Below the pieces are notes generated by a model that was given only the letters and a program-made list of their open reading frames with translations, was not told the DNA's origin and did no database searches. The position numbers and the translations under genes were made by a program. From an uncultured Fusobacterium sp. (lineage in GTDB: Bacteria; Bacillota; Clostridia; Lachnospirales; Lachnospiraceae), in contig CAUTRK010000009.1 in NCBI GenBank assembly GCA_963540885.1, positions 26 through 64,025 on the forward strand: a stretch of DNA of 64,000 nt. Direction: 5' to 3'. Shown here in pieces: positions 9,240 through 62,629 of this stretch; the first letter of the stretch is position 1; every line of letters begins with the position of its first letter.

Positions 9240-12200
9240 TTATTCTGTTGCAAAACCGTAGCGCTTTTTCCGCTGCATCATCCGGTCGTACATCTTCTCG
9301 AACTCGTCCATAGCCATCTGTAACCCGGCCTGCACTTCGTTCCTGTCCGCATTCCCCATGATAGTGATCTGCGGCGAGAAGATAATGTCTCCGCCTCCGC
9401 CAAATCCGGCACCGCCGATATCCGCAAGCTCCCGTTCCTTGATGCCGAGCATCTTTCCGGCCTGCTGCCACAGCGCGATATTCTCCCGCCTTGCCGACCG
9501 CTGGAAGGAGATAACCGCTTCTGTCCCGGCTTCGCCCGCGATAGACGGGCCGTTGGTAAAGCCGCCTTTTGCAAGCATCGGTATATTCAGCGGGCCGAAA
9601 GTCTTGCCGCCAACCATCGGCACCCAGTCAGGTATATTGACCTGAATGCTGTTGATCTTTCCGATTATGCCGTTGATAATCGCCTTGATTGCTTCAATCG
9701 GCGTGGATACAAGCCCGACCATTGCTTCAAATGCTCCGCCGAGCATTGTCTTGCAGCCTTCCCATACCTGCCCCCAGTTGCCGGTAAAGACTCCCGTAAG
9801 GAAATCAATAAGACCCTGGAAGAATGTCTGGATTCCCTGAACTATCGTCAGGATTCCTTCGGAAAGCACCTGGAACCCGGCAAGCACCGCAGGCACTACC
9901 ACGCTTCCTACGTTCAACAGTGCCGTCGCAATCGCACCGATGATCGGTTCCGCCGCCTGAATCACCTGTGCTATTGTCGTAAATACCGTCATGACCGCAG
10001 TTCCGAGCGCGGTAAAAATCGCCGCTATGGTCGGTGCTGCTGCCGTAAATGTCTGCATCAGGATCGGTACGACCGTCTGCGTGATGAAGTTGAAAATGTC
10101 TAATATGATCGGCTTCACGTAGGTTGTGGCGAAAGTAACGATCTGCCCTACCACTCCCATGATGGATTGCAGTATCGTTACCAGCCCGCCGAATGCCGCA
10201 CCGGCATCATCGCCAAACATTCCGGTAATGGCCTGCTGAACCGGTGCAAGTGCTTTCGCTACTCCGCCATCAGCAAACAGTCCTGTGATAAAATCACCGA
10301 CCGCTGCCAGCTTCCCGGTAAACTTATCAAAGACGGCCACGCCTTTTTCACCGAACACATTCCCGATGATTGTCCGGATGTCCTCCAGATGATCCCCGAG
10401 AATGCTGACCACGGCTATGATGCCCGAGATAGCCAGCACGACCGGCGCTGCTCCCGTCACAAGGCTCCCGAACCCGGAGGCAATCGGCCCCCAGAATGCC
10501 CCGCCCAGGTTCGCTGCCGCGCCGCCAAATTCAAGCCCGGCTCCCAACGCTCCTTTTCCGAGGTTCAGCATCCCGCCGCCGATTTGCGCGGCTTTACCCG
10601 CTGCGCCGCCGATAAACTGCCCGGCTTTGCTGTTTTGCAGCATGGCAAGCCCGGCTCCGGCTTTTGTCTTTAGCGCATCAACTCCCATTCCGCCGAGCAT
10701 AAGCCCGCCGTCTACCAGGTCTTTGAATGTCGCGCCGTAAATGCCGGAAAGAATCTGTCCTGTGACGCTTGCGGTTCCTTTTGCCGCTCCGATCAGTCCG
10801 CCGCCGATCTTCGTACCACCAAGGCCCTTGATTCCGCCGAGGATGTTTCCTCCCCACGCCTTTCCTGAACCGAGCATTCCGCCGAGCATATTTGAAATGC
10901 CCGGTATCATGCCGCCCTTGACGCCGCCGTTTTTCAGTTTATGTCCAAACAGCATTGTCGAAAGCATTCCCGGTGCTCCGGTAATGCCTTTGATCAGGCC
11001 GCCGCTTCTTCCGCCGAATGCTGACTTTGAGCCAAACAATAAGTCCGCGCCGCCGCCGAGCAGTCCCTCGATGGCCGGGGCGAACTTCATACCGACGAAT
11101 GCCGCCGCGATCTTCCCGATAGTCGCCGCCACCTGCGGGCCGTTGTCGTTCACATAGTCCAGCGCCTTAGTGATGTACGGCAGATACTTTTCGATCATAT
11201 CTCCGACTTTGGAGATTCCCTTCGATGCCAGCTCCGCCAGCGTCCCGGAAAGCTCCTGGAGCTGCGGCATGTTGTCGTTGAGCCGCAGGAACAGTTGCCG
11301 GATGGAATCATCCCACTGCGTCTGCAATGGGACAAAACTCTTTCCTATGTTCACTTTGAACATGTCTATGGCGCTGTTCCGCATCTGCCGCACGGCTTCC
11401 GGCGTCGCAGTCTTAATGTCGAACTCCCGCTGCATACTGTTCATGTATGCCTGTTCATCCGCCACCATTTCAAGCGCGTGCTGGTATACGTCCAGATTGT
11501 TGACGATCTTCGCTCCGCCCTCTGCGGCCCATACGCCGAATAATTGTCCGACGGCATTCAGCCGACGTTCTTCCGGGAGATTGGCGATTCCTTTAAAGAG
11601 CGTGTTCAGAGTTCCTACGCTGTCCTTCGTCATGGACTTCGAGACTTCTTCCGCAGTCAGGCCCATTTCCGCAAGCACGCCCTTCTGCTTCTTTGTCATG
11701 TCCGAACCTTTGGAAAGATTCAGCGCCATACGCTTAATGCTTGTACCGACGCGATCCGATGCAACGCCCGTTGCCAGCATGGCGTCAGCCAACGCGACCG
11801 TTGTTGACGGGTCGATGCCCGCAAGCTGTCCCAGCGCTGCCGACTGATTGACCGCGTTTGCAATCTCCGCCGCCGTCGTTGCAGAGTTCGCGCCCAGGTA
11901 ATTGATCTGGTTTGCCAGAGTCATTACCTCTTCGTGGGACATGTTGAATGCGTTTTCCCACTTTGCGCCGTACTCTGCGGCTTCCTTCGCTTCAATGTCC
12001 CATGCTGACGCCATCACAGCCGCATCTTTTACCAGTCCGCCGATATTCCCTTTTTCGTCAACCTGGAACATCTGCTCGATGGTTTTGCCAGACTGTCCCA
12101 TGGCTGCGGTCATTTCGGCAAGATATTCGCGCGTCAAAGGAACCTGCGTGCTTACCTTCTGGATGGCGTCATAGACATATTCATAGTTTTCTGCGTATGT

Positions 12201-12530
12201 CTTTCCGTTCGATGCGGTTTTCAGCGTGCCGTCAAGGTTCTTCGCCGCAGAGCCGATATTCCCCAGCTCGTCAGCCATACCGTCCACGTACTTGATAACA
12301 TCGCCAAGCTCGTTCTTGTACTTTACGGCTTCGTTGGCGCATGCCTTTAATCCCGCCACCGTCGCCGTTGTCATGGCTCCCATGGCCGCAAGACCGACCG
12401 TGCCGATCCGGCTTAGTGTCCGCGAGAATCCGCTGATCTGCCGCTGTGACGAATTGAGTGCGGACAAGAGGCTTTTGTCCATCTTGCCCGCGATTTTTAT
12501 TGTCAGAGCTAATGTTTTGTCTTTCGCCAT
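9240..12530 (-). CDS. Tail tape measure protein
   Basis: 1096 aa, Gly/Ala-rich with helical repeats, positioned after the chaperone gene. Confidence 0.9.
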   Translation of the reverse strand: MAKDKTLALTIKIAGKMDKSLLSALNSSQRQISGFSRTLSRIGTVGLAAMGAMTTATVAGLKACANEAVKYKNELGDVIKYVDGMADELGNIGSAAKNLDGTLKTASNGKTYAENYEYVYDAIQKVSTQVPLTREYLAEMTAAMGQSGKTIEQMFQVDEKGNIGGLVKDAAVMASAWDIEAKEAAEYGAKWENAFNMSHEEVMTLANQINYLGANSATTAAEIANAVNQSAALGQLAGIDPSTTVALADAMLATGVASDRVGTSIKRMALNLSKGSDMTKKQKGVLAEMGLTAEEVSKSMTKDSVGTLNTLFKGIANLPEERRLNAVGQLFGVWAAEGGAKIVNNLDVYQHALEMVADEQAYMNSMQREFDIKTATPEAVRQMRNSAIDMFKVNIGKSFVPLQTQWDDSIRQLFLRLNDNMPQLQELSGTLAELASKGISKVGDMIEKYLPYITKALDYVNDNGPQVAATIGKIAAAFVGMKFAPAIEGLLGGGADLLFGSKSAFGGRSGGLIKGITGAPGMLSTMLFGHKLKNGGVKGGMIPGISNMLGGMLGSGKAWGGNILGGIKGLGGTKIGGGLIGAAKGTASVTGQILSGIYGATFKDLVDGGLMLGGMGVDALKTKAGAGLAMLQNSKAGQFIGGAAGKAAQIGGGMLNLGKGALGAGLEFGGAAANLGGAFWGPIASGFGSLVTGAAPVVLAISGIIAVVSILGDHLEDIRTIIGNVFGEKGVAVFDKFTGKLAAVGDFITGLFADGGVAKALAPVQQAITGMFGDDAGAAFGGLVTILQSIMGVVGQIVTFATTYVKPIILDIFNFITQTVVPILMQTFTAAAPTIAAIFTALGTAVMTVFTTIAQVIQAAEPIIGAIATALLNVGSVVVPAVLAGFQVLSEGILTIVQGIQTFFQGLIDFLTGVFTGNWGQVWEGCKTMLGGAFEAMVGLVSTPIEAIKAIINGIIGKINSIQVNIPDWVPMVGGKTFGPLNIPMLAKGGFTNGPSIAGEAGTEAVISFQRSARRENIALWQQAGKMLGIKERELADIGGAGFGGGGDIIFSPQITIMGNADRNEVQAGLQMAMDEFEKMYDRMMQRKKRYGFATE

Positions 12531-21836: not shown

Positions 21837-23663
21837 TCAGATTCCTCCTGACCTTACCCGTCTTCCTCTGGCTTTCGGTGTCTGCTCCGGATTGATCATC
21901 AGTTCCGCCGGGTTCAGCACTTCCATCATTGCCTGCGCGTAGTTCCGGCAGTCCAGTGGTTCATTTCTCTTGTGAGCGCTGTCCACCAGCTCCCAGACAA
22001 TGACGCTTCGTCCCTTCCGGATCCTGACTACCATTCGCTCCGCTGTCAGCCCCTTAAAATATTCCTCTCCGTATCCTGCTTCCTCGTTCAGCGGGAAATG
22101 ACAGTAGTTCGGGCCGACCGTCTGCATTTTCAGGCGATTAAAGAGAAGTGCCTTTCCTGTGTCTACGCCAATCACAAAGAGCGGCGCTTTCTCGCGGTTG
22201 TTCTTCGTCGGATTCGAGAAGAACGGCACGTCCTGACCGCCCCGGCCTTTCAGCGCCCAGACGCGGCGTTCATATCTTTGTTTCGTGAACCGGTATACTT
22301 CATTCGCATGATGTCCGCCGGAATCGACAAATGCCCCGGCGATCCGCAGCGCTGTTCCGTCTTTCTTGAAAAACGGCTGCAATAAAAAAGCGTCCAGATC
22401 CCGCCAGACCTGTTCGCCCTCCATATATCCGAATATCTTTTGATACCGTATTCCCCAGCTTTCCTTCCCGGCTCCCCAGCCGACCACTTCCACCTCGAAG
22501 CGGTCATCCTGGACATCGACCCCGGCAGTAAGGATGAGCACGCCGTCCGGCACCTGTGCCTCGTAAATCTCCCGCCGGTTGATAAGCTCTGTCTCGTCCA
22601 TGGCGGTTCCCGGCTCGTCCCACGGCTCCCCGAGTTCCGTATTGATCCACGTTTTCAGCTTATCATGGTCGCCCTTCTTCGATAGATCGTCCGCAATGAG
22701 GAACTTCTCCGCAATCTCCTTCCATCCGCAGAAGGTGGAGGCCAGTGTGTTCAGATGGAAGCCCCGGGTTTCCGCTCCCGGATTTGCGGCGACGAAATGC
22801 CCCTGTTGCTCCATCTTCTTCCATTCGTGTTCCTGCGACTGAATGCCGCATTTCTCGCATTCATAGGTCACGCCCTTCGATAAGTCTGTTTTATCGAAAC
22901 GGATATTTCCCCAGGTAAGCGGCTGTAAATGTCCGCACTTCGGACACGGCACACACCATTCTTCCCGGGTGCTTTCTTCAAACTCCTTCGCAATCCGGCT
23001 GTTGACCTTTAATACCGGCGTGCTGACGACCACGGTCTTTTTATCCCAGAACGTCGTCTGACGCTTCATGGCGAGGAGGAGCGGGTCGCCCTCGGAACCG
23101 GCGGACGCCGGGTAACGGTCCACCTCGTCCGCAAGCAATACCTTGATCGGTCGGCTTGCAAGGCTTGCCGGGGAGTTTGCCCCGATGATCGTCACATGTC
23201 CGCCCGGAAAGTTCTTTTTCAAAATCGTGTTTCCGCTGTATCGTGACTTTGTGTCTACCAGTTCCCGGAGAACCGGTGTATCCCGCAGCATAGGCGCGAG
23301 GAAATCTTTTGAGAAGGTCTGCGCCATGTCGAGTGTCGGCTGCATAACAAGTACCGGGGCCGGGTAATAATGCATGTAATAGCCAAGCATGTTCATGAGC
23401 ATTGCGGTCTTTCCAATCTGTGCCGCGCTCATGATCACCACTTTTCTGATATGCGGATCCCCGATGGCGTCCATGATCTCCCGCTGATACGGTGCTTTGT
23501 CTGTATGCCACCGTCCCGGCTCCGCGCTGTTTTCCGCCGAAAGCATCCGGTATCTGTCCGCCCACTCGCTAAGTGTCAGCTCCGGCGGCGGTTTCAGTGC
23601 TGCTATGCACCTCGCGAACATGTCCTCCGTGTTCTTCGGTATGTCTATCGTTTTTCGTTTCAT
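21837..23663 (-). CDS. terL: Terminase large subunit (GpA type)
   Basis: 608 aa containing a Walker-A-like SAAQIGKT and a zinc-ribbon CPKCG...CEKCG, as in lambda gpA-type terminases. Confidence 0.9.
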   Translation of the reverse strand: MKRKTIDIPKNTEDMFARCIAALKPPPELTLSEWADRYRMLSAENSAEPGRWHTDKAPYQREIMDAIGDPHIRKVVIMSAAQIGKTAMLMNMLGYYMHYYPAPVLVMQPTLDMAQTFSKDFLAPMLRDTPVLRELVDTKSRYSGNTILKKNFPGGHVTIIGANSPASLASRPIKVLLADEVDRYPASAGSEGDPLLLAMKRQTTFWDKKTVVVSTPVLKVNSRIAKEFEESTREEWCVPCPKCGHLQPLTWGNIRFDKTDLSKGVTYECEKCGIQSQEHEWKKMEQQGHFVAANPGAETRGFHLNTLASTFCGWKEIAEKFLIADDLSKKGDHDKLKTWINTELGEPWDEPGTAMDETELINRREIYEAQVPDGVLILTAGVDVQDDRFEVEVVGWGAGKESWGIRYQKIFGYMEGEQVWRDLDAFLLQPFFKKDGTALRIAGAFVDSGGHHANEVYRFTKQRYERRVWALKGRGGQDVPFFSNPTKNNREKAPLFVIGVDTGKALLFNRLKMQTVGPNYCHFPLNEEAGYGEEYFKGLTAERMVVRIRKGRSVIVWELVDSAHKRNEPLDCRNYAQAMMEVLNPAELMINPEQTPKARGRRVRSGGI

Positions 23664-23779: not shown

Positions 23780-24259
23780 TCATTCTTCCGTTTCATTGTC
23801 GTTGCCCGTGATTGCCATTGCGGCGTTATAGCCGCTCATTTCTTCCAGCGCCTCCGTAATGGCGGTCTTCAAAAGGTCGAAGATTGCCGCCTGATCCCGT
23901 GGCATTTCCGCCAGCGTCGGGGACAGCTTCGCCGGGATGATCAGCATTCGGCTTCTGACATTTATGCACAGTGCCTTGATCCCCTTCTCTATATCTTCCG
24001 TGCTGTGGAGATTGCCGAGGCGTTCGTCATTGTCCATCTCTGCCGCCTTGCGTTTCTCCGCCGTCAGTTTCATTCGCTCCGTCTGCAGGCTTTCCTTCCC
24101 AGTACCACCGAGATAGGTAATGTACTTGTTGACCGTCTGCTGCAGGTCGTAAAGCCCCGGCCTTGCTTCCTGGATCACTCCCTCATCCCGGAGCTGCCGC
24201 ACCCGCCGTTCCGTAAGGCACAGCCAGTTCGCAACCACCCTGCTTGTGTACAGCTTCAT
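23780..24259 (-). CDS. HTH protein, candidate Nu1-like small terminase subunit
   Basis: 159 aa from the ATG at 24259 (MKLYTSRVVANWLCLTERRVRQLRDEGVI..), with an N-terminal HTH. Lies directly upstream of terL. Confidence 0.5.
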   Translation of the reverse strand: MKLYTSRVVANWLCLTERRVRQLRDEGVIQEARPGLYDLQQTVNKYITYLGGTGKESLQTERMKLTAEKRKAAEMDNDERLGNLHSTEDIEKGIKALCINVRSRMLIIPAKLSPTLAEMPRDQAAIFDLLKTAITEALEEMSGYNAAMAITGNDNETEE

Positions 24260-24345
24260 TGTCTGCCCTCTTGCCCCGCTCCTTCCTTCGGTTCTATAAT
24301 TGATCTGCCAAAACCATTTAAGCCCGATAGGAAGGAGGTGAATGT

Positions 24346-24555
24346 ATGGGCGTAAACTACACTGCGTGGGAAGTTGATATTTCCAATCTCCCCGTACCAG
24401 ACCGCGAACCGCTTTATAAAAAATTATCCGGAGTTGGTTGGGACGCTTACTGGAACGAACCACCTTATACAACTATTAAAGTCCTGATCCCGGAAGGAAA
24501 GCAGCTTCGCGATCTTGTCTCAATACCAGATATCTGTATTGTCCGGAAGGTCTGA
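24346..24555 (+). CDS. Small protein, family A copy 1 (antisense-oriented partner of a convergent pair)
   Basis: 69 aa with a strong RBS (ggaaggaggtgaatgtATG). The C-terminal motif L..L.SIPD.C.V is shared with 30049-30258 and 35202-35423. Confidence 0.55.
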   Translation: MGVNYTAWEVDISNLPVPDREPLYKKLSGVGWDAYWNEPPYTTIKVLIPEGKQLRDLVSIPDICIVRKV

Positions 24556-24813
24556 TAGATCCTTCATTTTTTCCATTGGTTCGCGGTATGCGTGTATATT
24601 TATGGCTGCCGGGTCGTACTCAATAACGATCCGGCATTTGTTTTTCGGGACCATGAGTGGAAAGATATGTTCGCATACTACTTCTATTCCGCGCCATGTA
24701 ACGTCTTTTTCTCCAATGAGCCGCAATCCGTGCAATGCCTTTGCAAGATCGTGCAGATTTTTAAAGGCGTTCTCGTATCCTTCTCTGTTCATTGAGTTAT
24801 ATACGGCTTTCAT
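24520..24813 (-). CDS. Small protein, family B copy 1
   Basis: 97 aa with RBS gaggaaatagaacATG. The motif KCRIVIEYDPA is shared with 30249-30443 and 35404-35652. Its 3' end overlaps 24346-24555 by 36 nt. Confidence 0.55.
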   Translation of the reverse strand: MKAVYNSMNREGYENAFKNLHDLAKALHGLRLIGEKDVTWRGIEVVCEHIFPLMVPKNKCRIVIEYDPAAINIHAYREPMEKMKDLSDLPDNTDIWY

Positions 24814-24960
24814 GTTCTATTTCCTCTTTTCCGTAATTGCTCTATGCACTGTTTGATTTCCCATTCTTCCGGTGCATCGAGTCCCTTATTTGTTATCCAT
24901 CGTGTTAAGACTCTTAGGACGACATATTGTTTTATCAGCAAATATGCTATATACGCAGCT

Positions 24961-25740
24961 TCAGCTATCACTATCAGTAATAACATTTTCGCTTTCCTCT
25001 CCGTCTTCGTCCGGGCCGACTTCCACGGCTCCGGTTGCCCGCATCATCATGATTTCCAAGCGGCGCTTTTCAAGCTCTATTCTTCTGTCGCTTTCTTCTG
25101 CCGACCGCAGGGCATTCGCTATGGTAGCAATCCGTCCTTGAACCTTGTACAGCGCTTCATTCAACTTCATGACCCGGCTGAATGCGGTGTCGCTGCTGTA
25201 CATGCCCATCTGCTGCCGCCCGCCGTCCTGGCGTTCCCCGGCTTCGTCTTTTCTCCCCGGTTCCCGCATATCCATAAGGCTTGACAGATGCAGCGTGTCT
25301 TCCGGCTCTGCTTCGTACTGCGCGATCTTCGCAAGGATCCTGTGCTCCCGGACCTTCAATATCTTCATCTCGTGTTCAAGTGCCGCCCTGCTGCCCATTG
25401 GCGCATTGTCGGCTATCGCCTTTTCAGAATCCGTCAGCATATCAAAAAAGATGGTGCTGTATGCTCCATCCTTTTCCGCGTTCTTATTCCCGATTGGTGC
25501 GCCGTCATGATGCCCGGCGGCATTCTTCTTGCCCTTGCTGTTCCGGTTTCCCGGCTGACCGCCGCGCTTTTTCTTCGGCAGGCTTTCGTCCCATTTGTCC
25601 TTCTGCTTCCAATTCCGCAAAGTCTGATACGACGCGCCCAGCTCTGCGGCAAGTTCCCGGAGATTGACCTCCGCGCCCTTGCTCCTTCTCGCGATGTATT
25701 CAGACTTGGCGGTGTCGCGCATTTCGCTCCGCTTCGCCAT
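24961..25740 (-). CDS. YjcR-like HTH protein (terminase small subunit-related)
   Basis: 259 aa from the ATG at 25740, with ..LRELAAELGASYQTLRNWKQKDKW..KKKRGGQPGNRN..GAPIGNKNA.., typical of the PBSX XtmA/YjcR family. Confidence 0.6.
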   Translation of the reverse strand: MAKRSEMRDTAKSEYIARRSKGAEVNLRELAAELGASYQTLRNWKQKDKWDESLPKKKRGGQPGNRNSKGKKNAAGHHDGAPIGNKNAEKDGAYSTIFFDMLTDSEKAIADNAPMGSRAALEHEMKILKVREHRILAKIAQYEAEPEDTLHLSSLMDMREPGRKDEAGERQDGGRQQMGMYSSDTAFSRVMKLNEALYKVQGRIATIANALRSAEESDRRIELEKRRLEIMMMRATGAVEVGPDEDGEESENVITDSDS

Positions 25741-25853
25741 CCTACACCCCCAATGAAAAAGCCGGGAGCTGCTGCCCTCGGCCCAAAATTTCATGATATC
25801 AATATAGCTCGAAAACCCGGCAAAAGTCGGCAAACTTTTTCGGTTGCGAACAT

Positions 25854-26992: not shown

Positions 26993-27238
26993 ATGAAGAT
27001 TTACAAGAGTGAATACGGCAAGTGCAATGTTGCCGGTCAAAAGATTCGTTCCCTTCGGGAAGCTGCGGAACTCTAGCAAGAGCAGCTTGCCGCAAAGATT
27101 CAGCTTGCCGGGTACAACATCAATCAGAAAGCGATAAGCAGGATTGAGACCGGGGAACGTGTGCTTGCGGATTATGAGTTGATCTGTTTTGCAAATGCTC
27201 TGTGCGTCTCTGTGAATGAATTGCTCGGCCTGGAGTAA
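26993..27238 (+). pseudogene. XRE-family HTH regulator interrupted by an in-frame TAG
   Basis: MKIYKSEYGKCNVAGQKIRSLREAAEL*QEQLAAKIQLAGYNINQKAISRIETGERVLADYELICFANALCVSVNELLGLE. The TAG at 27074-27076 sits where XRE proteins normally have Ser/Thr (..LSQEQLA..). Confidence 0.6.
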
Positions 27239-27437: not shown

Positions 27438-27501
27438 CCGGTGGCGGGCTGTGCTCCGGTGGCGCGGTGCTTCCGGGTGGCGCGGTGCTTCCGGGTGGCG
27501 C
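27438..27501. repeat. Tandem 17-18-bp repeat, about 3.5 copies
   Basis: ccggtggcgggctgtgct / ccggtggcgcggtgctt / ccgggtggcgcggtgctt / ccgggtggcgc. Confidence 0.7.
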
Positions 27502-28009: not shown

Positions 28010-28177
28010 ATGGAGAACGAAGAAATGGCCGAACTTGCCACACTTGAAAGACTCATTAAAGAACGCAATCACTTAACCGATTTGTTAGAGCTTATTCAAT
28101 CCGGCGATATTGAAAAGGCCATGAAAATCCTTAATCGTGATATTGAATCAATCAATGAGGCGATAAAGGAAAAGTAA
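28010..28177 (+). CDS. Small helical protein (first gene of the plus-strand island)
   Basis: 55 aa (MENEEMAELATLERLIKERNHLTDLLELIQSGDIEKAMKILNRDIESINEAIKEK) with RBS aaaaggagga. Below the ORF-track cutoff. Confidence 0.55.
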   Translation: MENEEMAELATLERLIKERNHLTDLLELIQSGDIEKAMKILNRDIESINEAIKEK

Positions 28178-28199
28178 AAAGAACAGCAACTAACCTAAA

Positions 28200-28237
28200 G
28201 ATGCAAGCCTGATTCAATTCGAGCTTGCATCTTTTTT
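28200..28237 (+). terminator. Rho-independent terminator
   Basis: gatgcaagc-(14 nt)-gcttgcatc followed by tttttt. Confidence 0.65.
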
Positions 28238-28269
28238 ATTCAGAAAATCAAAATCAGGAGGATAAAGAA

Positions 28270-28695
28270 ATGACTAACAACGAAATCATTTATAAGGCAC
28301 TGCAGGCAAAAGGATTTTCCGAGGATCAGTTAACGCAGCTTATGCAGGCTTTTCGCGGCGATCTCCCATTTCACACTTTCGCAGAATGGAAAGCACGCGG
28401 TTATTACGTTAGAAAAGGTGAAAAGGCATTTTTGGCGGTTCCGCTTTGGAAATATACGGATCGTCCCAACATGGCAGCACGCAAGGCCGCCGAGGAGGCC
28501 GGTGAAGAAATCAATCCGGATCCGCACTATTACAAGAAAATGTCTTACATCTTCGGTTTTAACCAGGTTGAAAAGGCCGGAGCCAAAAAGAACAACGCGC
28601 CGCAGGTGGTAGCAGTCCAGGCCGTAAACGAAAACAAGCCGCTTATGCTTCCGACGGTTTACAAGCCGGAGTGCACAGCATTAGCAGTTATCTAA
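28270..28695 (+). CDS. ArdC N-terminal-like (ssDNA-binding, anti-restriction-type) protein
   Basis: 141 aa from the ATG at 28270 (RBS aggagg). ..HTFAEWKARGYYVRKGEKAFLAVPLWKY.. resembles the ArdC-N/DUF1738 core motif. Confidence 0.45.
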   Translation: MTNNEIIYKALQAKGFSEDQLTQLMQAFRGDLPFHTFAEWKARGYYVRKGEKAFLAVPLWKYTDRPNMAARKAAEEAGEEINPDPHYYKKMSYIFGFNQVEKAGAKKNNAPQVVAVQAVNENKPLMLPTVYKPECTALAVI

Positions 28696-28845
28696 CAAAA
28701 CCATCATACGAGAAGATCAACAAATTCATTAAGAGCATCCCGGACGACGCCAGGAGCATTTACGGCCTGCCCTATAGCATCCGTGTCAACTAAACAAAAC
28801 GTATCCCGCCGCCGGTCGGGCAAAACCGGCAGAAAGGACTTTGAT

Positions 28846-29019
28846 ATGTGGGAAGCATCCGCAGAATATGCCGACGGCACGACGATCACAAAGTATTTCC
28901 CGTATAATGAAAATGGCAACTATCATCTTGAAAACGAACGCCAGTACGAGCTTGAAGAATGGTTGATCGGATACCACGATGATTGTACATGGTATAGCGT
29001 TGTTTATATCGCCGCGTGA
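28846..29019 (+). CDS. Small hypothetical protein
   Basis: 57 aa (MWEASAEYADGTTITKYF..), preceded by the conserved 35-nt leader ending in the RBS agaaagga. Confidence 0.5.
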   Translation: MWEASAEYADGTTITKYFPYNENGNYHLENERQYELEEWLIGYHDDCTWYSVVYIAA

Positions 29020-29065
29020 GCAATTTCCCGTCGCCGGTCGGGCAAAGCCGGCAGAAAGGAACAAA

Positions 29066-29272
29066 ATGTATCAGGTAACAAAAAGCCAATGGTCAAGGAT
29101 CGTCCGCGAACATTCTGACTTTGTTTGTAAGGCGTTCCGCCGGTATGAGCATGACGGAAAAGTGTGTAATCCCGGCGAATGGTGCTGCTTTGAATGTCTG
29201 CTCCCCGGCGCTCCGAATAATGGCGCTGTCCTGGTCTTTGAGCACATTCATTTTGAAATTGTCCCCGGCTGA
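29066..29272 (+). CDS. Small Cys-rich hypothetical protein
   Basis: 68 aa (MYQVTKSQWSRIVREH..), preceded by the second copy of the 35-nt leader. Confidence 0.5.
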   Translation: MYQVTKSQWSRIVREHSDFVCKAFRRYEHDGKVCNPGEWCCFECLLPGAPNNGAVLVFEHIHFEIVPG

Positions 29273-29320
29273 TTATCAATGTAGCTTTGTTTATGTCTGC
29301 ACAAAAAGAAGGAGGAAGAA

Positions 29321-29404
29321 TGGCCGAACTGATTGAATACAAGGTGATCCGTGAATATATGGACGGAAAGCGCGGAAAGCGCAACAAAAAACTATATATG
29401 TAGG
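29321..29404 (+). CDS. Mini-ORF (27 codons) ending in TAG; the frame stays open 37 more codons to 29518
   Basis: Strong RBS gaaggaggaagaATG. MAELIEYKVIREYMDGKRGKRNKKLYM*DDEGQLTIGGLYMHLGPGYPGMQRIVSAKPTGTKDDW. Confidence 0.35.
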
Positions 29405-29629
29405 ACGACGAAGGGCAGCTTACTATAGGCGGGCTATATATGCACCTCGGCCCCGGCTACCCCGGGATGCAGCGCATTGTCTCCGCGAAGCCGACCGGCA
29501 CAAAAGATGATTGGTAATATATGCTTTGATCTCATCCGCAAAACGCCCGGAATAATCCGGGCGCTGTGTGCTATACTTATGTCATATCTTTGCTATAACA
29601 AAAAGCATTTACAAAAAGAAGTTGCTATC

Positions 29630-29881
29630 ATGGCTGAACAAAAAATACTTTTCTTTCCGCCTTATCGGCTTGTGGCGCAGTTTGCCGATGGAAAGCGCCT
29701 GATCTTTGACGGCATGAGTGAAACGGAAGCTATGGCCGCGATGGAATCCGCCCAGGATGAACACGGCGATATCTCATGGTATGATGGCGTGACCGATGAA
29801 CATTATGAAAACGGTGTGCTGTACCGCATGACTCCGGATCCGCCAGTGATCGACCCGGAATCCGGTAACATGCATGATTGA
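29630..29881 (+). CDS. Small hypothetical protein
   Basis: 83 aa from MAEQKILFFPPYRLVAQFADGKRLIFDG.., with a weak RBS. Confidence 0.4.
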   Translation: MAEQKILFFPPYRLVAQFADGKRLIFDGMSETEAMAAMESAQDEHGDISWYDGVTDEHYENGVLYRMTPDPPVIDPESGNMHD

Positions 29882-30048
29882 ACCAAAAATGCACGAAATC
29901 GGTTTTATTTGCCCGTTTACTCGTAAAAAATGCGCAGATAGAACAAAAAGTGATCGTTAAAACAAAAATTTGTACGTTTTGAAGCAAAAACGCCCCGGCG
30001 GCTCCCACAAGCCAGCCGGGGCAAAACCCTCGCAGAAAGGATTTTCTC

Positions 30049-30258
30049 ATGAGAAATGTAATATTGAACTGTAGTAAACTGTCGTATAATTCAAAGGTTG
30101 AACTCTTTGATAAGCTAAGAGCCTTAAATATCATTGGCGTTGGTGAATTTGTTTCTGACGAATATGATCTGTATCCGGAAGATTTTGAGCTGCAATCGCT
30201 TATAGATATCATACCGGACGGATGCAGATATACCGTCTTTCCCGAGCATCATTCCTGA
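30049..30258 (+). CDS. Small protein, family A copy 2
   Basis: 69 aa with RBS gaaaggattttctcATG. The C-terminus LQSLIDIIPDGCRYTV matches the family A motif. Confidence 0.5.
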   Translation: MRNVILNCSKLSYNSKVELFDKLRALNIIGVGEFVSDEYDLYPEDFELQSLIDIIPDGCRYTVFPEHHS

Positions 30259-30443
30259 TAAATATAATATCGTCCTTCTGCCGGATCGTACTCGAATATG
30301 ATCCGGCATTTCTGATCTTCCACTGACAACATTTCTGATAAAATTCCCATGATTTCCGCCGCCGTTTTCATGTCCTGCAACGGTCCGAAACTGCACTTTT
30401 TATTTTTTGCTATTATTTCTCTTTCTTTCTCTTTATTTCTCAC
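30249..30443 (-). CDS. Small protein, family B copy 2
   Basis: 64 aa with a GTG start and a GGAGG RBS 9 nt upstream. Contains ..QKCRIIFEYDPAEG.. Its 3' end overlaps 30049-30258 by 10 nt. Confidence 0.5.
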   Translation of the reverse strand: MRNKEKEREIIAKNKKCSFGPLQDMKTAAEIMGILSEMLSVEDQKCRIIFEYDPAEGRYYIYQE

Positions 30444-34074: not shown

Positions 34075-34914
34075 TCATCTTCGCCGCCTTTCCTTCACCG
34101 CGTCCCGGCGGTACATGATAATGACCGTGTGCCGCTGCCCCGTATCCGTTACCTTCGTCTCGACCCGCTCCAATGTGTACCCCGGATACTGCCGCGCCCA
34201 GAAATCCGAATCGTCTATGTAAGTCGTTGCCGCTTCCTCGAATTTCTTCCGGCTCCACTTTGTGTCATTCGGCGGCGGCGTCTTCGGCTTTTCCAGTCCC
34301 CTTGACTGCCGCCAATGCCGATCACACCGCTTGTTCTTGCCAATGTAATTAACAAGACTCTCGACGGATCCATGATTGACTTCCAGCCGGTCACAACGGC
34401 ACATGCCCATGCTCTCACCGTTTTTGTCTTTCCAAAGCTCCTCCAGAACATCCCGCGTCAACCCCTCCGTGTGCTGAATGATAGCGTGGTGATGATGCCG
34501 CCCGATATAGCTCCCGTCTTCCTGCTGTGTCGCGTACTCCGTCGCCATGACCCATTTCGGGCGGCTGACTCCGTGCCGGTCGCACCACCGATACACCCGT
34601 TTCATGTAATTCGTGAAATCTTGATCCGCCCTCTTCTGGTCTCCCGGATCCGGTAAGTGTTCGTCGTTATATGTTCCCGTCCATGAGAAGTCCCCTTCAC
34701 CAAAGTTTGTATTCACGAGCTGCACATGGTATCGTTTCGCCCTTCTGTCGTTGTATGCCTGCTGTGCCAGCTCCGTTGCCTTTTTCTTTTTCGCCCTCCG
34801 GCTCTCTCTGTGCTCCCGCTCCGATACCTGGTACAGATCCACCTCCATGTATCTTGCCGTATCGTAACTTCTCCCGCAGATATGCTTTTGCTCTCTGTAG
34901 TACACCCTGCCCAC
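34075..34914 (-). CDS. HUH-type rolling-circle replication initiator (Rep)
   Basis: 279 aa with motif I-like FSWTGTY, the HUH motif GRHHHHAII, and a Y-motif LVNYIGKN. Confidence 0.6.
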   Translation of the reverse strand: MGRVYYREQKHICGRSYDTARYMEVDLYQVSEREHRESRRAKKKKATELAQQAYNDRRAKRYHVQLVNTNFGEGDFSWTGTYNDEHLPDPGDQKRADQDFTNYMKRVYRWCDRHGVSRPKWVMATEYATQQEDGSYIGRHHHHAIIQHTEGLTRDVLEELWKDKNGESMGMCRCDRLEVNHGSVESLVNYIGKNKRCDRHWRQSRGLEKPKTPPPNDTKWSRKKFEEAATTYIDDSDFWARQYPGYTLERVETKVTDTGQRHTVIIMYRRDAVKERRRR

Positions 34915-35104: not shown

Positions 35105-35150
35105 TGTTATCTGTCGTTATCTGTTGTCTTTTATTTGCGTCGATGTTATC
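35105..35150. repeat. GTTATC iterons upstream of rep (candidate origin elements)
   Basis: tgttatctgtcgttatctgttg....gatgttatcat gives three GTTATC copies in the rep upstream region. Confidence 0.3.
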
Positions 35151-35201
35151 ATTTCTGTTGCCCGACTACTCTGCCAAAACCATTGAAAGGAGGTTATTGC
35201 T

Positions 35202-35423
35202 TTGAAGCTGCTTTATTATCGCTTTGATGTTTCCGGTCTCTCGACTGAGGAGCGTCGCTCTGTCGCTTCTGCTCTTGACATGCAGGCTCATACCGGATGC
35301 ATCATTGACGCTCGCAACCGTAATATTTTCTATAGCTTTTTCCCTGAAAGCATCAATATGGACGACTTGAAGACATATTTCCCCGTTCTTTACAAGTGCC
35401 ATATCACTCTGACGACTCCGTGA
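35202..35423 (+). CDS. Small protein, family A copy 3
   Basis: 73 aa with a TTG start and RBS gaaaggaggttattgcTTG. The C-terminus MDDLKTYFPVLYKCHITL matches family A. Confidence 0.5.
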   Translation: MKLLYYRFDVSGLSTEERRSVASALDMQAHTGCIIDARNRNIFYSFFPESINMDDLKTYFPVLYKCHITLTTP

Positions 35424-35652
35424 TATCCGGAATCTGCTCCACTCTAAACATTGATCTCGGAAAGTTCGGGTCAAAATCAAGAATCACCCGGACTTTCCTG
35501 TTTCCTGTCATGTTCATATAGCTTTCAAGGTACTGGATATTCTTGTAAACATCTTCGGTTTTCCATAGCCCGATTGGCATGACTCTGTACAATATCGGAT
35601 CATATCCGTAGTGCTCTAATATTTCGTCTTTAGTTAAATGGCAGTCCTTCAT
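35404..35652 (-). CDS. Small protein, family B copy 3
   Basis: 82 aa with RBS ggaaggagtggaagATG and ..RKVRVILDFDPNFP.. Its 3' end overlaps 35202-35423 by 20 nt. Confidence 0.5.
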   Translation of the reverse strand: MKDCHLTKDEILEHYGYDPILYRVMPIGLWKTEDVYKNIQYLESYMNMTGNRKVRVILDFDPNFPRSMFRVEQIPDITESSE

Positions 35653-36139
35653 CTTCCACTCCTTCCGGAATACTCATGAACCCTTCGCCCACGTCCGACG
35701 CCTGATAGCCGCCCTGCTGCCCGGTTCCGTATCCACCGGAATAATTGCCGCCCTGCCCTCTTTGCGTCTGCTGCTGCCCGCTCTGTGCGTTTCCGCCGCC
35801 CTGCGCGTTCTTGCTCTCTGCAAACTCCGCTTCTTCGACAACAACATCTGTCGTGTAGACTTTGTTTCCGTCCCGGTTCGTATAGCTCCCGGTTGCAATC
35901 CGCCCGGTAATGGCAAGTTTCGTTCCCTGGTGCGTGTACTTCTCCATAAACTCCGCTACCCTTCCGAAAGCGATGCATGACGGAAAATCCGCCGTCTGCT
36001 GCTGGTCGTTTCCTTCCTGCCGCTTTACCCGTCTGTCTACCGCCAATGTGAAACGGGCAGTGCACTTCTGGTCCTGGCCCTGTGTCCACCGGATATCCGG
36101 GTCCCGCGTCAGCCGCCCCATGAGTATTACTTTGTTCAT
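35630..36139 (-). CDS. ssb: Single-stranded DNA-binding protein
   Basis: MNKVILMGRLTRDPDIR..., a Gly/Gln-rich linker, and an acidic tail ..EDEGLPFN. Confidence 0.9.
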   Translation of the reverse strand: MNKVILMGRLTRDPDIRWTQGQDQKCTARFTLAVDRRVKRQEGNDQQQTADFPSCIAFGRVAEFMEKYTHQGTKLAITGRIATGSYTNRDGNKVYTTDVVVEEAEFAESKNAQGGGNAQSGQQQTQRGQGGNYSGGYGTGQQGGYQASDVGEGFMSIPEGVEDEGLPFN

Positions 36140-37990: not shown

Positions 37991-38461
37991 TTATCTCCCC
38001 AATACTTCCGGGAACGGAAGATACTCTCCGTATGCTCTCCTGTGTCCCTGCTCCGATACGGTCACATAGGCCGTGCCCCGACGGTTGAGCCGCATCTTGA
38101 CCATGTTCCCGCAGGTGATGCACTTATGTTCCGTTTCTTCGTCCTGCAGGTTTGTCTTGTAACGGAAATCCGCGCCGCATTTACACCGGAGATACAGTGG
38201 CCTTAAATCCTGCAATGGTGTTTCTTCTCCGCACTCGCACTTATACACATAGATTTCGCGCTTCGCATTGAACGCCCGCACCTTTCCGCAGTGTTCGCAC
38301 TGTATAATCAGAAAACCGCGCCAAGGTCCCTCGAAATTTCTTTCCCGCTGATCCCGTGCCATTTCTTCCGTATCCTGTGCGGCTGTGCCCCAGCTCTCGC
38401 GGCTTCCGAACAGGCTCTCCGCCCTGCTCCTTCCTTTCTGCTTCATCTGTCCTCCTGTCAT
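37991..38461 (-). CDS. Multi-zinc-ribbon protein
   Basis: CEHCG..CECG..CKCG..CITCG. Confidence 0.45.
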   Translation of the reverse strand: MTGGQMKQKGRSRAESLFGSRESWGTAAQDTEEMARDQRERNFEGPWRGFLIIQCEHCGKVRAFNAKREIYVYKCECGEETPLQDLRPLYLRCKCGADFRYKTNLQDEETEHKCITCGNMVKMRLNRRGTAYVTVSEQGHRRAYGEYLPFPEVLGR

Positions 38462-39192
38462 GAAAGATTGAACTGCTCCATATGAAAAAGATTCATCTGC
38501 GCCGTGTGGGCGCTGAATCGTTTTTCCTGTTTTTTGAAATAATCCTCGTCAATCTCGAAGCCGATAAACTCCAGGTCAAGCCCCGACTCCCACGCCGCAA
38601 TCCGGCTGCTCCCGCTGCCAAGATGCGTGTCCAGTATCCTGAATCCCTTCTTTGCGTACTTTTGGAATATCCAGGCATACAGCTCTATCGGCTTTTGTGT
38701 CGGATGGAACCGCCCGCCGCCCGAGCTGGAACATTTCATGATCTTTGCGTTATCGTTAAAACTGCACCATGCATATTCCGCCATTGCCATTGAGAAGTTT
38801 TCCGGAATGTTCGTTTTCTCCCAGACAAGGAAGCATCTGTTCGGAGGAAGCTGAAAGTAGTTCCCGCCCCATATGATCTGCTCTTTGCTGACTCTGAAAA
38901 GCTCCTCGAAATATTCTTCTCCCGGCGCTGTATCCCATTCGATTATCTTTGTGCCGTACTTCTCCATGTGGCCGCCGCCGCGCCTGTCAATCTTCCGAGT
39001 ACCCCCCCCGGTCAGTTTTTCGCGCTTATAACGATCGAACTTCCCGCCGAATCGGCTCTTGTCCTGCCGCTTGAAATCCTGTCCCCCGTCCCCATATGGC
39101 GGATCCACAACGGCCAGGTCAAAGAATTTATCCGGGAACTCCCGCATTCCCTCCATGCAGTCCATGTTATAGGCTTTGTTTAGTTCCAGCAT
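38458..39192 (-). CDS. DNA methyltransferase, amino-MTase beta class (N6-A or N4-C)
   Basis: 244 aa with an N-terminal DPPY motif (AVVDPPYGDG) and a C-terminal SAM motif (FHPTQKPIEL...ILDTHLGSGSS). Contains an in-frame G8 run at 39002-39009. Confidence 0.85.
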   Translation of the reverse strand: MLELNKAYNMDCMEGMREFPDKFFDLAVVDPPYGDGGQDFKRQDKSRFGGKFDRYKREKLTGGGTRKIDRRGGGHMEKYGTKIIEWDTAPGEEYFEELFRVSKEQIIWGGNYFQLPPNRCFLVWEKTNIPENFSMAMAEYAWCSFNDNAKIMKCSSSGGGRFHPTQKPIELYAWIFQKYAKKGFRILDTHLGSGSSRIAAWESGLDLEFIGFEIDEDYFKKQEKRFSAHTAQMNLFHMEQFNLS

Positions 39193-40382: not shown

Positions 40383-40460
40383 CCCGAGCGGTGGGAGTCG
40401 AACCCACCATGCCGCACTAATGACCGTTGAGTGTTGCGGTGCCGGAACGGGAACGCCCGG
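40383..40460 (-). ncRNA. tRNA-like element B (tRNA 3' half or aberrant tRNA)
   Basis: Perfect T arm GUGGG-UUCGACU-CCCAC plus a 3' acceptor strand CGCUCGG-G. The only complementary 5' strand (CCGGGCG) overlaps element A. There is no D arm. A CCGCA/UGCGG stem encloses an 18-nt loop. Confidence 0.3.
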
Positions 40461-40521
40461 AATTGAACCGGAATCAAAGGTCTTACTCCCTTGCGAAGCT
40501 CTACCGTTGAGCTACATTCCC
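40448..40521 (-). tRNA. tRNA-like gene A with a non-canonical anticodon arm (isotype unassignable)
   Basis: Acceptor GGGAAUG/CGUUCCC, D arm GCUC-AACGGUA-GAGC and T arm UCCGG-UUCAAUU-CCGGG are canonical. The anticodon region folds only as a 6-bp stem CAAGGG/CCUUUG with loop AGUAAGA, which lacks U33. Confidence 0.4.
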
Positions 40522-40649
40522 GTGCGCGGTCCATCCAAAGATCGGTTCAAGCAAGACCGCCTGCGTCGGCTTATCTCCGCTCCTTTCGGTCACGACTTCT
40601 CTTGCCTTTCCTGTGAGCTGTTCTCCGCGCGGTAGTATTTCATTTCTTA

Positions 40650-40723
40650 TCGGGAATCCGGGACTCGAACCCGGGACACGCGGCTTATAAGGCCGCCGCT
40701 CTAACCGCCTGAGCTAATTCCCA
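40650..40723 (-). tRNA. tRNA-Ile (anticodon UAU)
   Basis: Full cloverleaf: acceptor UGGGAAU/AUUCCCG (U1-G72), D stem GCUC/GAGC, anticodon stem GCGGC/GCCGC, loop CUUAUAA, T arm CCGGG-UUCGAGU-CCCGG. No CCA is encoded. Confidence 0.8.
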
Positions 40724-40936
40724 AAATCGCGCCATATCCCCAAAGGCGCGTCCTACTTCTCCGAGTACCTGACTACCGGATTTTCGATTTTCTCGCTCGA
40801 CTGGATTTCAGGGTTCCAGCAGGAGGAGGATTCGTTCTGCCGCACTCCTGCATACTACAGATATCTATAGCATCGGAAATCCGCGCGTTCGGGAAACTGT
40901 AAACCCGTCTGGTTTAGCGAGGGAAGATACCTCGGC

Positions 40937-43258: not shown

Positions 43259-43493
43259 TTCTTTCCTCTTTTGCCCGCATTGTAAGCGCTGCTATCTGCT
43301 GTATGGTTTCCGCTTCCTCGGTTCCGTCCATTGCTTCTCCGCAGTATGGGCAGTACCGATATGTGCATATCTTTTTCTTGTCTGTTGATTTCTTCGGCGC
43401 TCCTATCGCTACATCCTGGACGCGCTCCCCGCACGCCGGGCAAATGAATATTCTCGACTTGATGCGCGTGTTCTCCGGTGTCCACAGTCTCAT
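43245..43493 (-). CDS. Zinc-ribbon protein
   Basis: The start MRLWTPENT.. at 43493 forms an ATGA overlap. Contains CPACG....CPYCG. Confidence 0.45.
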   Translation of the reverse strand: MRLWTPENTRIKSRIFICPACGERVQDVAIGAPKKSTDKKKICTYRYCPYCGEAMDGTEEAETIQQIAALTMRAKEERNAVQ

Positions 43494-62399: not shown

Positions 62400-62629
62400 T
62401 TTACAGCTCCCTCCGCTCTCCAGAGCGGGTCTCATATTTCCAAAGACTGCCGACAGCGCTCTCCGCGTGCCATATTCGTTAAAAGTATACGACAGAATGC
62501 CGCATTCGGCAACTTTGATACCAGAAAATCGGTCCGTCTTTGATGCCAGAAAAGCGGTCCGTCTGACGACGCACCGCCTCACCATTTTTTTCATCCGCAC
62601 ATCCCGCTTTGAATGAGAACCATGAACGT

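Follow-up and report, generated by a model that had tools for sequence, protein, structure and literature searches.

Convergent small-gene cassettes of a Lachnospiraceae prophage with a predicted terminator inside the coding sequence of the facing gene

In a stretch of 64,000 nucleotides (nt) from an uncultured Fusobacterium sp., placed by GTDB in the Lachnospiraceae (assembly GCA_963540885.1, contig CAUTRK010000009.1, positions 26 to 64,025; "the window" below), a prophage carries three sites at which a small plus-strand gene (p1, p2, p3) converges on a minus-strand gene (m1, m2, m3) and overlaps its 3' end. An earlier note on this DNA had described these sites as copies of a mobile, possibly toxin-antitoxin-like two-gene module. 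Our analysis strongly supports the plus-strand p proteins as a genuine, undescribed family that is absent from current family databases, and it points to a hairpin within each facing gene that appears to serve p as an intrinsic terminator and is read by the facing gene as a short peptide motif. Judged from promoter consensus and hairpin covariation, these units are probably moron-like accessory cassettes, driven by host-type promoters and equipped with an embedded, dual-coded terminator.

Results

The plus-strand genes encode an undescribed protein family

The six open reading frames (ORFs) lie where the earlier note had placed them: p1 at 24346-24555 (69 amino acids, aa) faces m1 at 24520-24813 (97 aa), p2 at 30049-30258 (69 aa) faces m2 at 30249-30443 (64 aa), and p3 at 35202-35423 (73 aa, TTG start) faces m3 at 35404-35652 (82 aa), with the p genes on the plus strand, the m genes on the minus strand and 3' overlaps of 36, 10 and 20 nt, respectively. 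An independent gene caller had also picked up all six; in a public protein collection they are listed on one 65.5-kb contig, each forming a singleton cluster. As had been noted, p1 (between m1 and a terS gene) and p3 (between m3 and a Rep gene) are lone plus-strand genes inside minus-strand arrays; p2 is the final gene of a plus-strand operon of small genes (28010-30258). m1 belongs to the packaging operon and is translationally coupled to an upstream 58-aa ORF, and m3 lies just downstream of the SSB gene.

That the p genes are coding, and that p2 and p3 are under purifying selection, is strongly supported. p2 and its orthologue P0008, from a locus (L008) that is syntenic with the window at 74% nucleotide identity, share 83% protein identity, with 30 synonymous versus 12 non-synonymous codon differences that fall 11/4/34 on the three codon positions. 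p3 is 65% identical to its orthologue P0009, found in the same Rep/SSB context in L010-L013, with codon-position differences of 20/17/33.

The three plus-strand proteins had been proposed to be divergent paralogues. Pairwise, this relationship is weak (Smith-Waterman z of 3.7 for p1-p2, 1.7 for p2-p3 and 1.0 for p1-p3); at the profile level it is solid for p1 and p3 and weaker for p2. A leave-one-group-out profile test with 16 members against about 3,260 six-frame ORFs recovered p1 with E = 3.9e-8 and p3 with E = 7.6e-4, and in the same type of test with an 11-member family the omitted group was the top-ranked non-member ORF every time. Alignment of {p1,p2} with the {p3 group} by hhalign gave P = 7e-5 over 58 collinear columns, and p1 matched the p protein of L074 (L074p) in BLASTP with E = 7e-6.

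A full HMMER search of 1.84 billion representative proteins returned only p1, the p2/p3 representatives and one further member, P0010, indicating that the family is rare among called proteins; further members were found adjoining the hairpins described below, for a family total of 17. For none of these 17 was there a match in Pfam, PHROGs, NCBIfam, PADLOC or PDB sequences. Peptide-pattern searches of IMG/VR with p1, m1, P0009, P0010 and an alignment of the m proteins found no relatives, and a JGI metagenome scan with the p3-group alignment found nothing. Against cultured phages, neither tblastn with p3 and one p protein of the phages termed group A below nor megablast with 16 kb gave a match, and word-index protein searches yielded one p2 orthologue and, for m, one motif-sharing protein, but nothing more.

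The p proteins are 61-73 aa long, soluble and mostly acidic. The strand-turn x-D-x-S-x-L-(S/P)-x-x-E-R in the N-terminal part and P-x-G-C in the C-terminal part are conserved among them. AlphaFold, given a six-sequence alignment, modelled p1 with the topology beta-alpha-beta-beta-alpha-beta at a mean predicted local distance difference test score (pLDDT) of 82.8 and a predicted template-modelling score (pTM) of 0.65, a confident prediction of a ferredoxin-like fold. A Foldseek search with this model against PDB and BFVD found generic ferredoxin-like matches only, with E > 0.02.

It seemed conceivable that the plus-strand ORFs are chance open frames in the gaps of minus-strand operons and that their resemblance is accidental, given that the p1-p3 and p2-p3 pairwise scores are not significant and that p1 has no close homologue in 5.8 billion proteins. 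However, purifying selection on p2 and p3, the significance at the family level and the confidently predicted fold already refute this reading, and the conserved promoter, ribosome-binding site (RBS) and terminator speak against it as well, so that we regard it as extremely improbable.

A hairpin inside the facing gene as predicted terminator of p

Downstream of p1, a terminator scan predicted the stem-loop TGCCGGGTCGT-ACTCAATA-ACGATCCGGCA (24607-24636, plus strand) followed by TTTGTTTTTC (to 24646; whole element 24607-24646). It lies in the 3' third of m1 and is read there as K-C-R-I-V-I-E-Y-D-P-A. The predicted p2 terminator, TGCCGGATCGTA-CTCGAA-TATGATCCGGCA followed by TTTCTGATCT (30279-30318, plus strand, stem-loop 30279-30308), lies inside m2 and is read as K-C-R-I-I-F-E-Y-D-P-A; that of p3, GGAAAGTTCGGGT-14 nt-ACCCGGACTTTCC followed by TGTTTCCTG (35459-35507, plus strand, with a 13-bp stem at 35459-35498), lies inside m3 and is read as K-V-R-V-I-L-D-F-D-P-N. 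The stem pairs are thus codons of the m frame, Arg CGG with Pro CCG, Ile ATC with Asp GAT or GAC, and Val GT- with Tyr -AC. Rfam has nothing at the three p/m sites.

Searching public collections with the hairpin as a DNA pattern gave 12 IMG/VR loci and 53 metagenome loci (loci outside the window are numbered here with the prefix L), and 13 phage-type hairpin lineages were counted, including the three sites of the window and L002; our own ORF maps of high-GC loci were used for L020 and L022 only. Over all lineages, the stems are 11-13 bp long with dG values of -13 to -24 kcal/mol. When ten lineages were aligned, 94.5% of the cells were paired, compared to 23-45% in slid-partner controls. None of 500 shuffles reached the observed paired cells, the cells changed on both sides or the covariation score, while the counts of pairs and of pair types with changes were unexceptional (37/500 and 69/500 shuffles). 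Pair 7-34, for example, is GC in four lineages, UA in another four, CG in one and UG in one. Relative to the p2 hairpin, that of L008 has a G-C to U-A swap that leaves the base pair intact although the codons change from Cys to Ile and from Ala to Glu, and relative to the p3 hairpin, that of L010 has a compensatory G-C/A-U change, with T7 after its stem. The codon pairs flanking R-I-V...Y-D-P stay reverse complements throughout (Cys/Ala, Ile/Asp, Ile/Glu, Val/Asn, Ser/Gly, Ala/Asp); the amino-acid pairs of the motif covary because their codons must base-pair.

The hairpin is also asymmetric. Wobbles occur in nine cells, each of them a G·U pair in the p sense that would be an A·C mismatch in the m sense, the p-sense fold is the more stable one in 14 of 15 lineages, and the p-sense stem is followed by six to eight T within 10 nt in 13 of 15, compared to none or one in the m sense. 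In the m frame, this T-tract corresponds to the Lys codons ahead of the motif. The G·U pairs, the amino-acid-altering compensatory changes and the T-tract together make the hairpin look like an intrinsic terminator of p, and on the strength of these alignments its selection as a structure, acting in the p sense, appears strongly supported.

These features also bear on a rival reading, in which K-x-R-I-V-x-E-Y-D-P is primarily a protein motif of a genuine, fast-evolving phage family, preferred codons (CGG/CCG, ATC/GAT, GTx/xAC) give rise to the inverted repeat as a by-product, and p merely tends to sit downstream. Codon usage indeed favours precisely the stem codons, the m3-type proteins share N-terminal similarity, and hairpin-bearing genes without p exist. 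Moreover, the DNA pattern, 26 nt long, occurs by chance in eight other places, in the same frame in histidine kinases, an ABC ATPase and a HicB-like protein, and also in a GH42 enzyme and an epimerase. However, these chance cellular copies have neither T-tract nor Lys codons, and their flanking pairs pair at random rate only, whereas every phage lineage has the Lys codons and T-tract, keeps all wobbles on the p-sense strand and lets the flanking codons covary as reverse complements while the amino acids change. As, in addition, 34-44 nt are 85-89% identical in DNA between genes that are otherwise unalignable, we consider it quite unlikely that the motif is primarily a matter of protein sequence and codon preference.

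Three of the chance matches, L043, L057 and L062, come from metagenomes; one sits at the N-terminus of a HicB-like antitoxin (YRIVLEYDPATRHYTATVPGLPG...), while others map to histidine kinases, around the N-box. As a peptide of the beta-hairpin type, R-I-V-x-E-Y-D-P thus recurs among unrelated proteins encoded by high-GC genomes. A HicB-like kinship of the motif was considered and rejected, the sole HicB-like match being one chance DNA match.

Promoters and leaders of the p genes

Ahead of p1 lies the promoter-like site that the earlier note had pointed out, a match to the sigma-A-type consensus of the form TTGCCC-18-TATAAT (24271-24300, plus strand); the terS gene (start at 24259, minus strand) adjoins it back to back with its RBS and start codon. 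The promoter-like site of p3 is TTGTCT-17-TATCAT, with a TG before the second hexamer (35124-35152, plus strand), and L010 and L011 have TTGCTA-18-TATACT in the equivalent position. In a consensus-level test, 9 of 11 p genes had a sigma-A-type site 25-50 nt upstream, in which the -10 element was often of the extended kind (TGnTATAAT), and the position of the p promoter is kept between orthologues.

Also present as described is a 15-nt leader, TCTGCCAAAACCATT, on the plus strand ahead of p1 (24304-24318) and p3 (35170-35184). It has exactly two copies in the window and is only partly kept in p3 orthologues; a shorter motif, GCCAAAACC, shows no enrichment in the window, leaving the exact 15-mer alone as notable. 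The description of all six RBSs as good held in that a Shine-Dalgarno sequence is present in each case, but not for p2, where it is weak (AAAGGA only). The p1 RBS is GGAAGGAGG at 24330-24338, 7 nt upstream of the start, and that of p3 is AAAGGAGG, likewise 7 nt upstream (8 nt from the inner GGAGG); m1, m2 and m3 have AAGAGGAAA, GGAGG and GGAAGGAG, respectively.

p2 has a leader stem-loop, CCCCGGC...GCCGGGG followed by CAAAACCCTCGCAGAAAGGA as RBS (29993-30021, plus strand), which is conserved in L008. Elsewhere in the window, a 35-nt repeat (28804-28838 and 29026-29060, 94% identical) consists of a similar stem-loop, GCCGGT-CGGGCAAA-ACCGGC, and directly thereafter the RBS AGAAAGGA; the two repeats precede two small plus-strand genes, and the stem-loop before p2 is accompanied by GCAGAAAGGA. 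Related leaders precede the p genes in L014 and L021. These elements may stabilise the 5' end of mRNAs or serve as sites of processing.

Between the HUH Rep gene and p3, a direct repeat, GTTATCTGTC, occurs twice at 35106-35124. It is part of a block, CCGCTTTTTGTTATCTGTCGTT.TCTGTTG, that is nearly identical in L010 and L011, about 75-95 nt before the start of the p3 orthologue (near 4906-4925). This repeat could represent iterons or origin of Rep, or the Rep promoter.

The arrangement recurs in other phages

The co-occurrence that the earlier note had named as a check on its idea was borne out: the convergent, 3'-overlapping arrangement recurs in some nine other lineages, including a cultured Faecalibacterium phage. 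A p-family ORF lies 24-66 nt upstream of the hairpin in nine of the 13 lineages, and the predicted p terminator is 50-125 nt inside the partner gene. Wherever the 3' overlap of the p gene with its partner was measured, it came to 4-65 nt, except in the Faecalibacterium phage FP_Toutatis, where the two ORFs abut and the stop codons are 2 nt apart. In two cases the combination itself differs. In L014, the p gene P0010 overlaps by 47 nt an unrelated convergent gene of at least 229 aa without the motif; a hairpin is present in this partner gene too, but a different one, with a 13-bp stem and a single U·G wobble. In the L019 group, a different small convergent gene precedes the same hairpin. These exceptions indicate that the constant feature is p, followed by a hairpin inside whichever gene faces it. 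Just upstream of P0010, at 3840-4330 of L014, three stretches resemble minus-strand tRNA 3' halves (...GGTTCGAGTCCC...CCA in the reverse complement); a tRNA-linked insertion was considered and rejected, as ARAGORN calls no tRNA there.

The cultured phage came to light through m3, which in tblastn matched FP_Toutatis (NC_047915; L080), a phage described in PMC5883640, whose gp06 is m3-like. In the 300-nt "intergenic" gap after gp06 and on the opposite strand, FP_Toutatis has a 69-aa p gene (2722-2931 of the locus, minus strand; 3482-3691 of the record), complete with cgTGcTATAAT, GGGGAGGGGG and the hairpin, which scored E = 6e-16 against a profile built without it. This gene is missing from the GenBank and RefSeq annotation, whereas the related phage Lelie annotates it as hypothetical. 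L034 has a small, repeat-driven ORF that is homologous to FP_Toutatis gp05 (annotated as a "kinase"; 71 aa, antisense). As far as the matching translated upstream stretch tells, the promoter cassette of the group-A p genes seems to be present at gp05 as well.

The p genes are accessory and exchanged with their partners

A set of near-identical phages, group A, differs in the presence of p. It is present in L015, L020 and L024; in L021 it is cleanly deleted, with promoter and RBS retained and the partner kept; and in L016 and L026 it has been replaced from its 5' side. In each case the 3' end of p and the hairpin remain, because both are coding sequence of the partner. L031 and L034 are 93-99% identical on either side of the cassette but have different p+m pairs, and the swapped 450 bp are flanked by two copies of a repeat of about 100 nt (9893-9990 and 10439-10542 in L031, 6615-6698 and 7148-7250 in L034; also found in L047 and L066). 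In this repeat, the RBS and start of a minus-sense gene stand back to back with a plus-sense TTGCTT-17-TATACT, a 5' stem-loop (GCCGGCTGTTGCGGCAGCCG) and an RBS, and it also drives unrelated small plus-sense genes (MIDTDALRQ..., MWVYRSPIGPF...). It looks like a promoter-bounded cassette system for accessory genes; cassettes of the integron type were considered and rejected, there being no integrase and the p genes having their own promoters. The mobile character suggested by the earlier note has thus found support in the gain, loss and exchange of the p+m pair as a unit in group A and in L031/L034, and that p is accessory and exchanged together with m is strongly supported.

Another possibility is that the hairpin acts as DNA, either as a short conserved "linker" for module exchange by homologous recombination or as a single-strand signal linked to rolling-circle replication by the HUH Rep protein, with termination incidental. 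Mosaic breakpoints next to or inside the cassette, short DNA stretches that are highly conserved between unrelated genes, and the HUH Rep and SSB proteins encoded by the prophage are in line with this. However, the L031/L034 exchange maps to the flanking repeats and not to the hairpin, the tolerance of G·U and the U-tract are features of an RNA terminator, and the hairpins occur at varied genome positions, which renders a role at the DNA level very unlikely.

The facing genes share little beyond the hairpin

For the minus-strand proteins, paralogy had been claimed as well. A shared motif is real, but a protein family in the usual sense was not borne out, as the rest is unrelated between subtypes. 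The similarity between m1 and m2 (z = 10.3) is confined to 26 residues around the motif, and m3 shares 16-23 residues with m1 and m2; overall, the shared segment, K-x-R-I-V-x-E-Y-D-P-x, comprises 16-28 residues, outside of which the partner proteins are unrelated, with sizes ranging from 64 to 289 aa. Within subtypes, m2 is 60% identical to its orthologue (codon-position differences 18/14/29), and the m3-type proteins resemble each other in their N-terminal part; m3 is a member of phrog_34489 (E = 2.3e-8), to which m1 and m2 have no match at E <= 1. A GTDB scan with the m alignment found one 22-residue match, in a metagenome-assembled genome of the Chitinophagaceae, which we took as chance. 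On the other strand, the stem-loop-stem reads x-R-I-V-x-E-Y-D-P-x and the U-tract the preceding Lys codons, indicating that the minus-strand "family" is mostly the mirror image of the terminator. From the hairpin alignments, we think it likely that it is largely a reverse-complement reading of the p terminator hairpin, under dual constraint.

Alternatively, p and its convergent partner might form a functional two-protein system, be it toxin-antitoxin-like, an exclusion system or a regulator with its target, in which p may recognise the beta-hairpin of the partner. AlphaFold models the motif of m1 as a beta-hairpin, within a poor model overall (pLDDT 47.6), and two invariant loop positions of the hairpin are bases of a Glu/Asp codon, suggesting protein-level constraint on the partner motif. 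Between flanking repeats, p and its partner have been swapped together, and the four closest p pairs correspond to the four closest partner pairs, as judged from the partners' N-terminal parts. However, since p, the terminator and the 3' part of the partner gene are physically interlocked, they travel together, and this overlap by itself forces co-inheritance. Over all lineages, there is no correlation between p and partner similarity (Mantel 0.03; 2071 of 5000 permutations at least as high). Apart from the 16-28 residues the partners are unrelated and of very different sizes, that of L014 is without the motif, and L021 keeps its partner after clean deletion of p. We consider such a system unlikely. 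Its toxin-antitoxin variant, put forward in the earlier note, found no support: all p and m proteins are soluble, with a negative grand average of hydropathy (GRAVY), acidic to near-neutral isoelectric points (4.3-6.7) and no hydrophobic stretch, PADLOC, NCBIfam and Pfam contain no matching toxin-antitoxin or defence model, the genes are convergent rather than arranged in an operon, the place of the partner can be taken by an unrelated gene (L014), and a different convergent gene can make use of the hairpin (L019 group).

Prophage setting

The prophage extends to about 44.5 kb of the window, beyond which host genes follow, among them DnaX and the large signal recognition particle (SRP) RNA (62595-62858, minus strand). 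Judged from the phage relatives, a G+C content of 53.6% and the large SRP RNA, the window probably stems from a Faecalibacterium-like Firmicute. The packaging region comprises terL (21837-23663) and two different terS-like genes on the minus strand, at 23783-24259 (phrog_57, 1e-29) and 24964-25833 (phrog_1889, 6e-56), between which the 58-aa ORF, m1 and p1 are located. Other recognisable genes encode the tail tape-measure protein (9243-12530), the HUH Rep protein (34078-34914), SSB (35633-36139), a DNA methylase (38461-39192), a lytic transglycosylase with an SLT domain (43493-44380) and an HD-domain protein. Two tRNA genes, for tRNA-Leu(UAA) and tRNA-Ile(UAU), lie at 40447-40522 and 40649-40724 (minus strand). 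An XRE-type helix-turn-helix ORF at 26993-27238 (plus strand; MKIYKSEYGKCNVAGQKIRSLREAAEL*QEQLAAKIQ...) has an in-frame TAG at about 27074-27076; it could be a pseudogene, or else translation may continue past the stop. Between it and a minus-strand ORF for a ribbon-helix-helix-like protein of 59 aa, an 18-nt tandem repeat (GGTGGCGCGGTGCTTCCG x 2.4, 100% matches) occupies 27458-27501.

Discussion

The combined evidence suggests a simple mode of operation for these cassettes. Each copy would be an autonomous unit with a sigma-A promoter, a short leader, a strong RBS, an ORF of 61-73 aa and a Rho-independent terminator, except for copy 2, which would instead form the end of a short plus-strand operon. 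The terminator would be located 20-90 nt past the stop codon of p, in the last third of the convergent gene. Host RNA polymerase would thereby transcribe p independently of the phage operons, in the lysogen or right after infection, and the hairpin would halt the p transcript once it had run 50-125 nt into the facing gene, which would spare the phage operon antisense transcription. In the sense of the partner, transcription would meet a weaker hairpin without U-tract and read through, as it must in order to reach terS or Rep, and would continue antisense over p. We propose that, through this read-through, p and the phage operon would tend not to be expressed together. As to the role of p itself, our guess is a binding protein directed against a host or phage target, in anti-defence, exclusion or host takeover.

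Several observations weigh against this picture. The promoters and terminators of the p genes are predictions from consensus and covariation, and in copies 2 and 3 the T-tract is of mediocre quality. Arg is most often encoded by CGG here (36%) and Pro by CCG (78%), so that the stem core could arise from the peptide alone, and codon identity is weak evidence. Four loop positions are invariant across ten hairpins, and the TC in columns 19-20 constitutes the first two bases of the m-frame Glu/Asp codon, which implies that the motif peptide is probably constrained too. Four hairpin lineages are without p; L002, L065 and L075 have no p gene, and L002 lacks any convergent gene. Finally, p2 scores weakly as a family member in the pairwise, hhalign and leave-out profile comparisons, the 16-member test giving E = 0.34 for p2, 0.013 for its orthologue and 0.24 for the p protein of L022 (L022p).

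One can ask whether the cassette does more than express p. Conceivably, the p gene, the terminator and the C-terminal beta-hairpin of the partner constitute a portable dual-coded switch or mutual-exclusion cassette, in which the same DNA would specify an RNA terminator and a peptide recognised by p itself. Such a cassette could be transferred, between promoter repeats, to one phage gene or another and bring it under the control of p, or, alternatively, convergent transcription would make p and the phage operon mutually exclusive. We hold this to be a rather doubtful proposition; if true, it would represent a new kind of mobile regulatory cassette in gut phages.

Considering that Faecalibacterium prausnitzii is among the most abundant, health-associated gut bacteria, it is of some consequence that the p genes are in no family database and that one of them has gone unannotated in the RefSeq record of a cultured phage of this species. 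Accessory genes with host-type promoters are the usual seat of lysogenic-conversion, exclusion and anti-defence functions in temperate phages, and the presence of three p paralogues in one prophage suggests that their function matters to the phage. With FP_Toutatis and its cultivable host, the predictions made here are directly testable, and interest in the cassettes would rise if p were found to act on the hairpin peptide of its partner, or to be an anti-defence or exclusion factor in this key gut commensal. Irrespective of function, the p/m hairpin is a clean natural example of dual coding, and it carries a warning for the detection of small-protein families, in that a conserved "protein motif" may be the mirror image of a terminator on the opposite strand.

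Likenesses to known proteins are of limited reach. The p1 model has the same topology as ferredoxin-like domains such as HMA, the ACT/RAM domains of Lrp/AsnC, the DNA-binding domain of papillomavirus E2, Cas2 and PII-like proteins, at TM-scores of 0.5-0.66; with a best Foldseek E of 0.025, identities of 9-19% and no shared metal-binding or catalytic motif, this is a likeness of fold class only. On the partner side, m3, which has FP_Toutatis gp06 among its homologues, belongs to phrog_34489, a group of phage proteins with no known function; m1 and m2 do not match it.

Among genetic systems, the earlier note had compared the pairs to the convergent type I toxin-antitoxin loci of Bacillus prophages, txpA/RatA and bsrG/SR4, whose 3' ends overlap by tens to about 100 nt. 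The comparison stands as far as convergent ORFs in a prophage with overlapping 3' ends are concerned; the transcripts may overlap too, which would make sense-antisense pairing conceivable here as well. It fails for the hydrophobic toxin peptide and the non-coding antitoxin RNA, since both strands code for conserved soluble proteins, their ORFs being under purifying selection, and the partners are mutually unrelated outside the hairpin. Type II systems do not fit either: p and m are convergent and not co-directional, and there are no matches in Pfam, NCBIfam or PADLOC. A parallel in transcription is offered by phage lambda, where the oop RNA overlaps the 3' end of cII, and by the excludon idea of overlapping convergent transcription (PMC7154746). 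In these cases, as predicted for p, a transcript ends inside a convergent gene and the two units can interfere, but the short unit described here is a protein-coding gene in a portable, repeated cassette, and interference is a conjecture.

The closest counterparts of the p cassettes are morons, extra genes with their own promoter and terminator between two phage genes, as defined by Hendrix. Morons of the temperate phages HK97 and HK022 were reportedly described by Juhala et al. in 2000. Morons resemble the p cassettes in being small and accessory, with a promoter of the host type and a terminator that is factor-independent; they are present in some and absent from others of a set of near-identical phages, and they are often expressed independently of the phage operons. 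In silico, the p genes show a promoter and a factor-independent terminator of their own and presence or absence among related phages, and the terminators have the G+C-rich stem, short loop and U-tract of intrinsic terminators, with weaker tracts in copies 2 and 3. Unlike in morons, the predicted terminator of p is not intergenic but lies inside a convergent coding sequence and is conserved there at the peptide level, 3' overlap of the ORFs is seen in nearly all p lineages, three paralogues coexist in one prophage, and the cassettes are bounded by repeated promoter/RBS elements; their expression from the prophage is a presumption. The best-supported reading of this architecture is thus that of a moron, an autonomous accessory unit, but one with an unusual, apparently dual-coded terminator.

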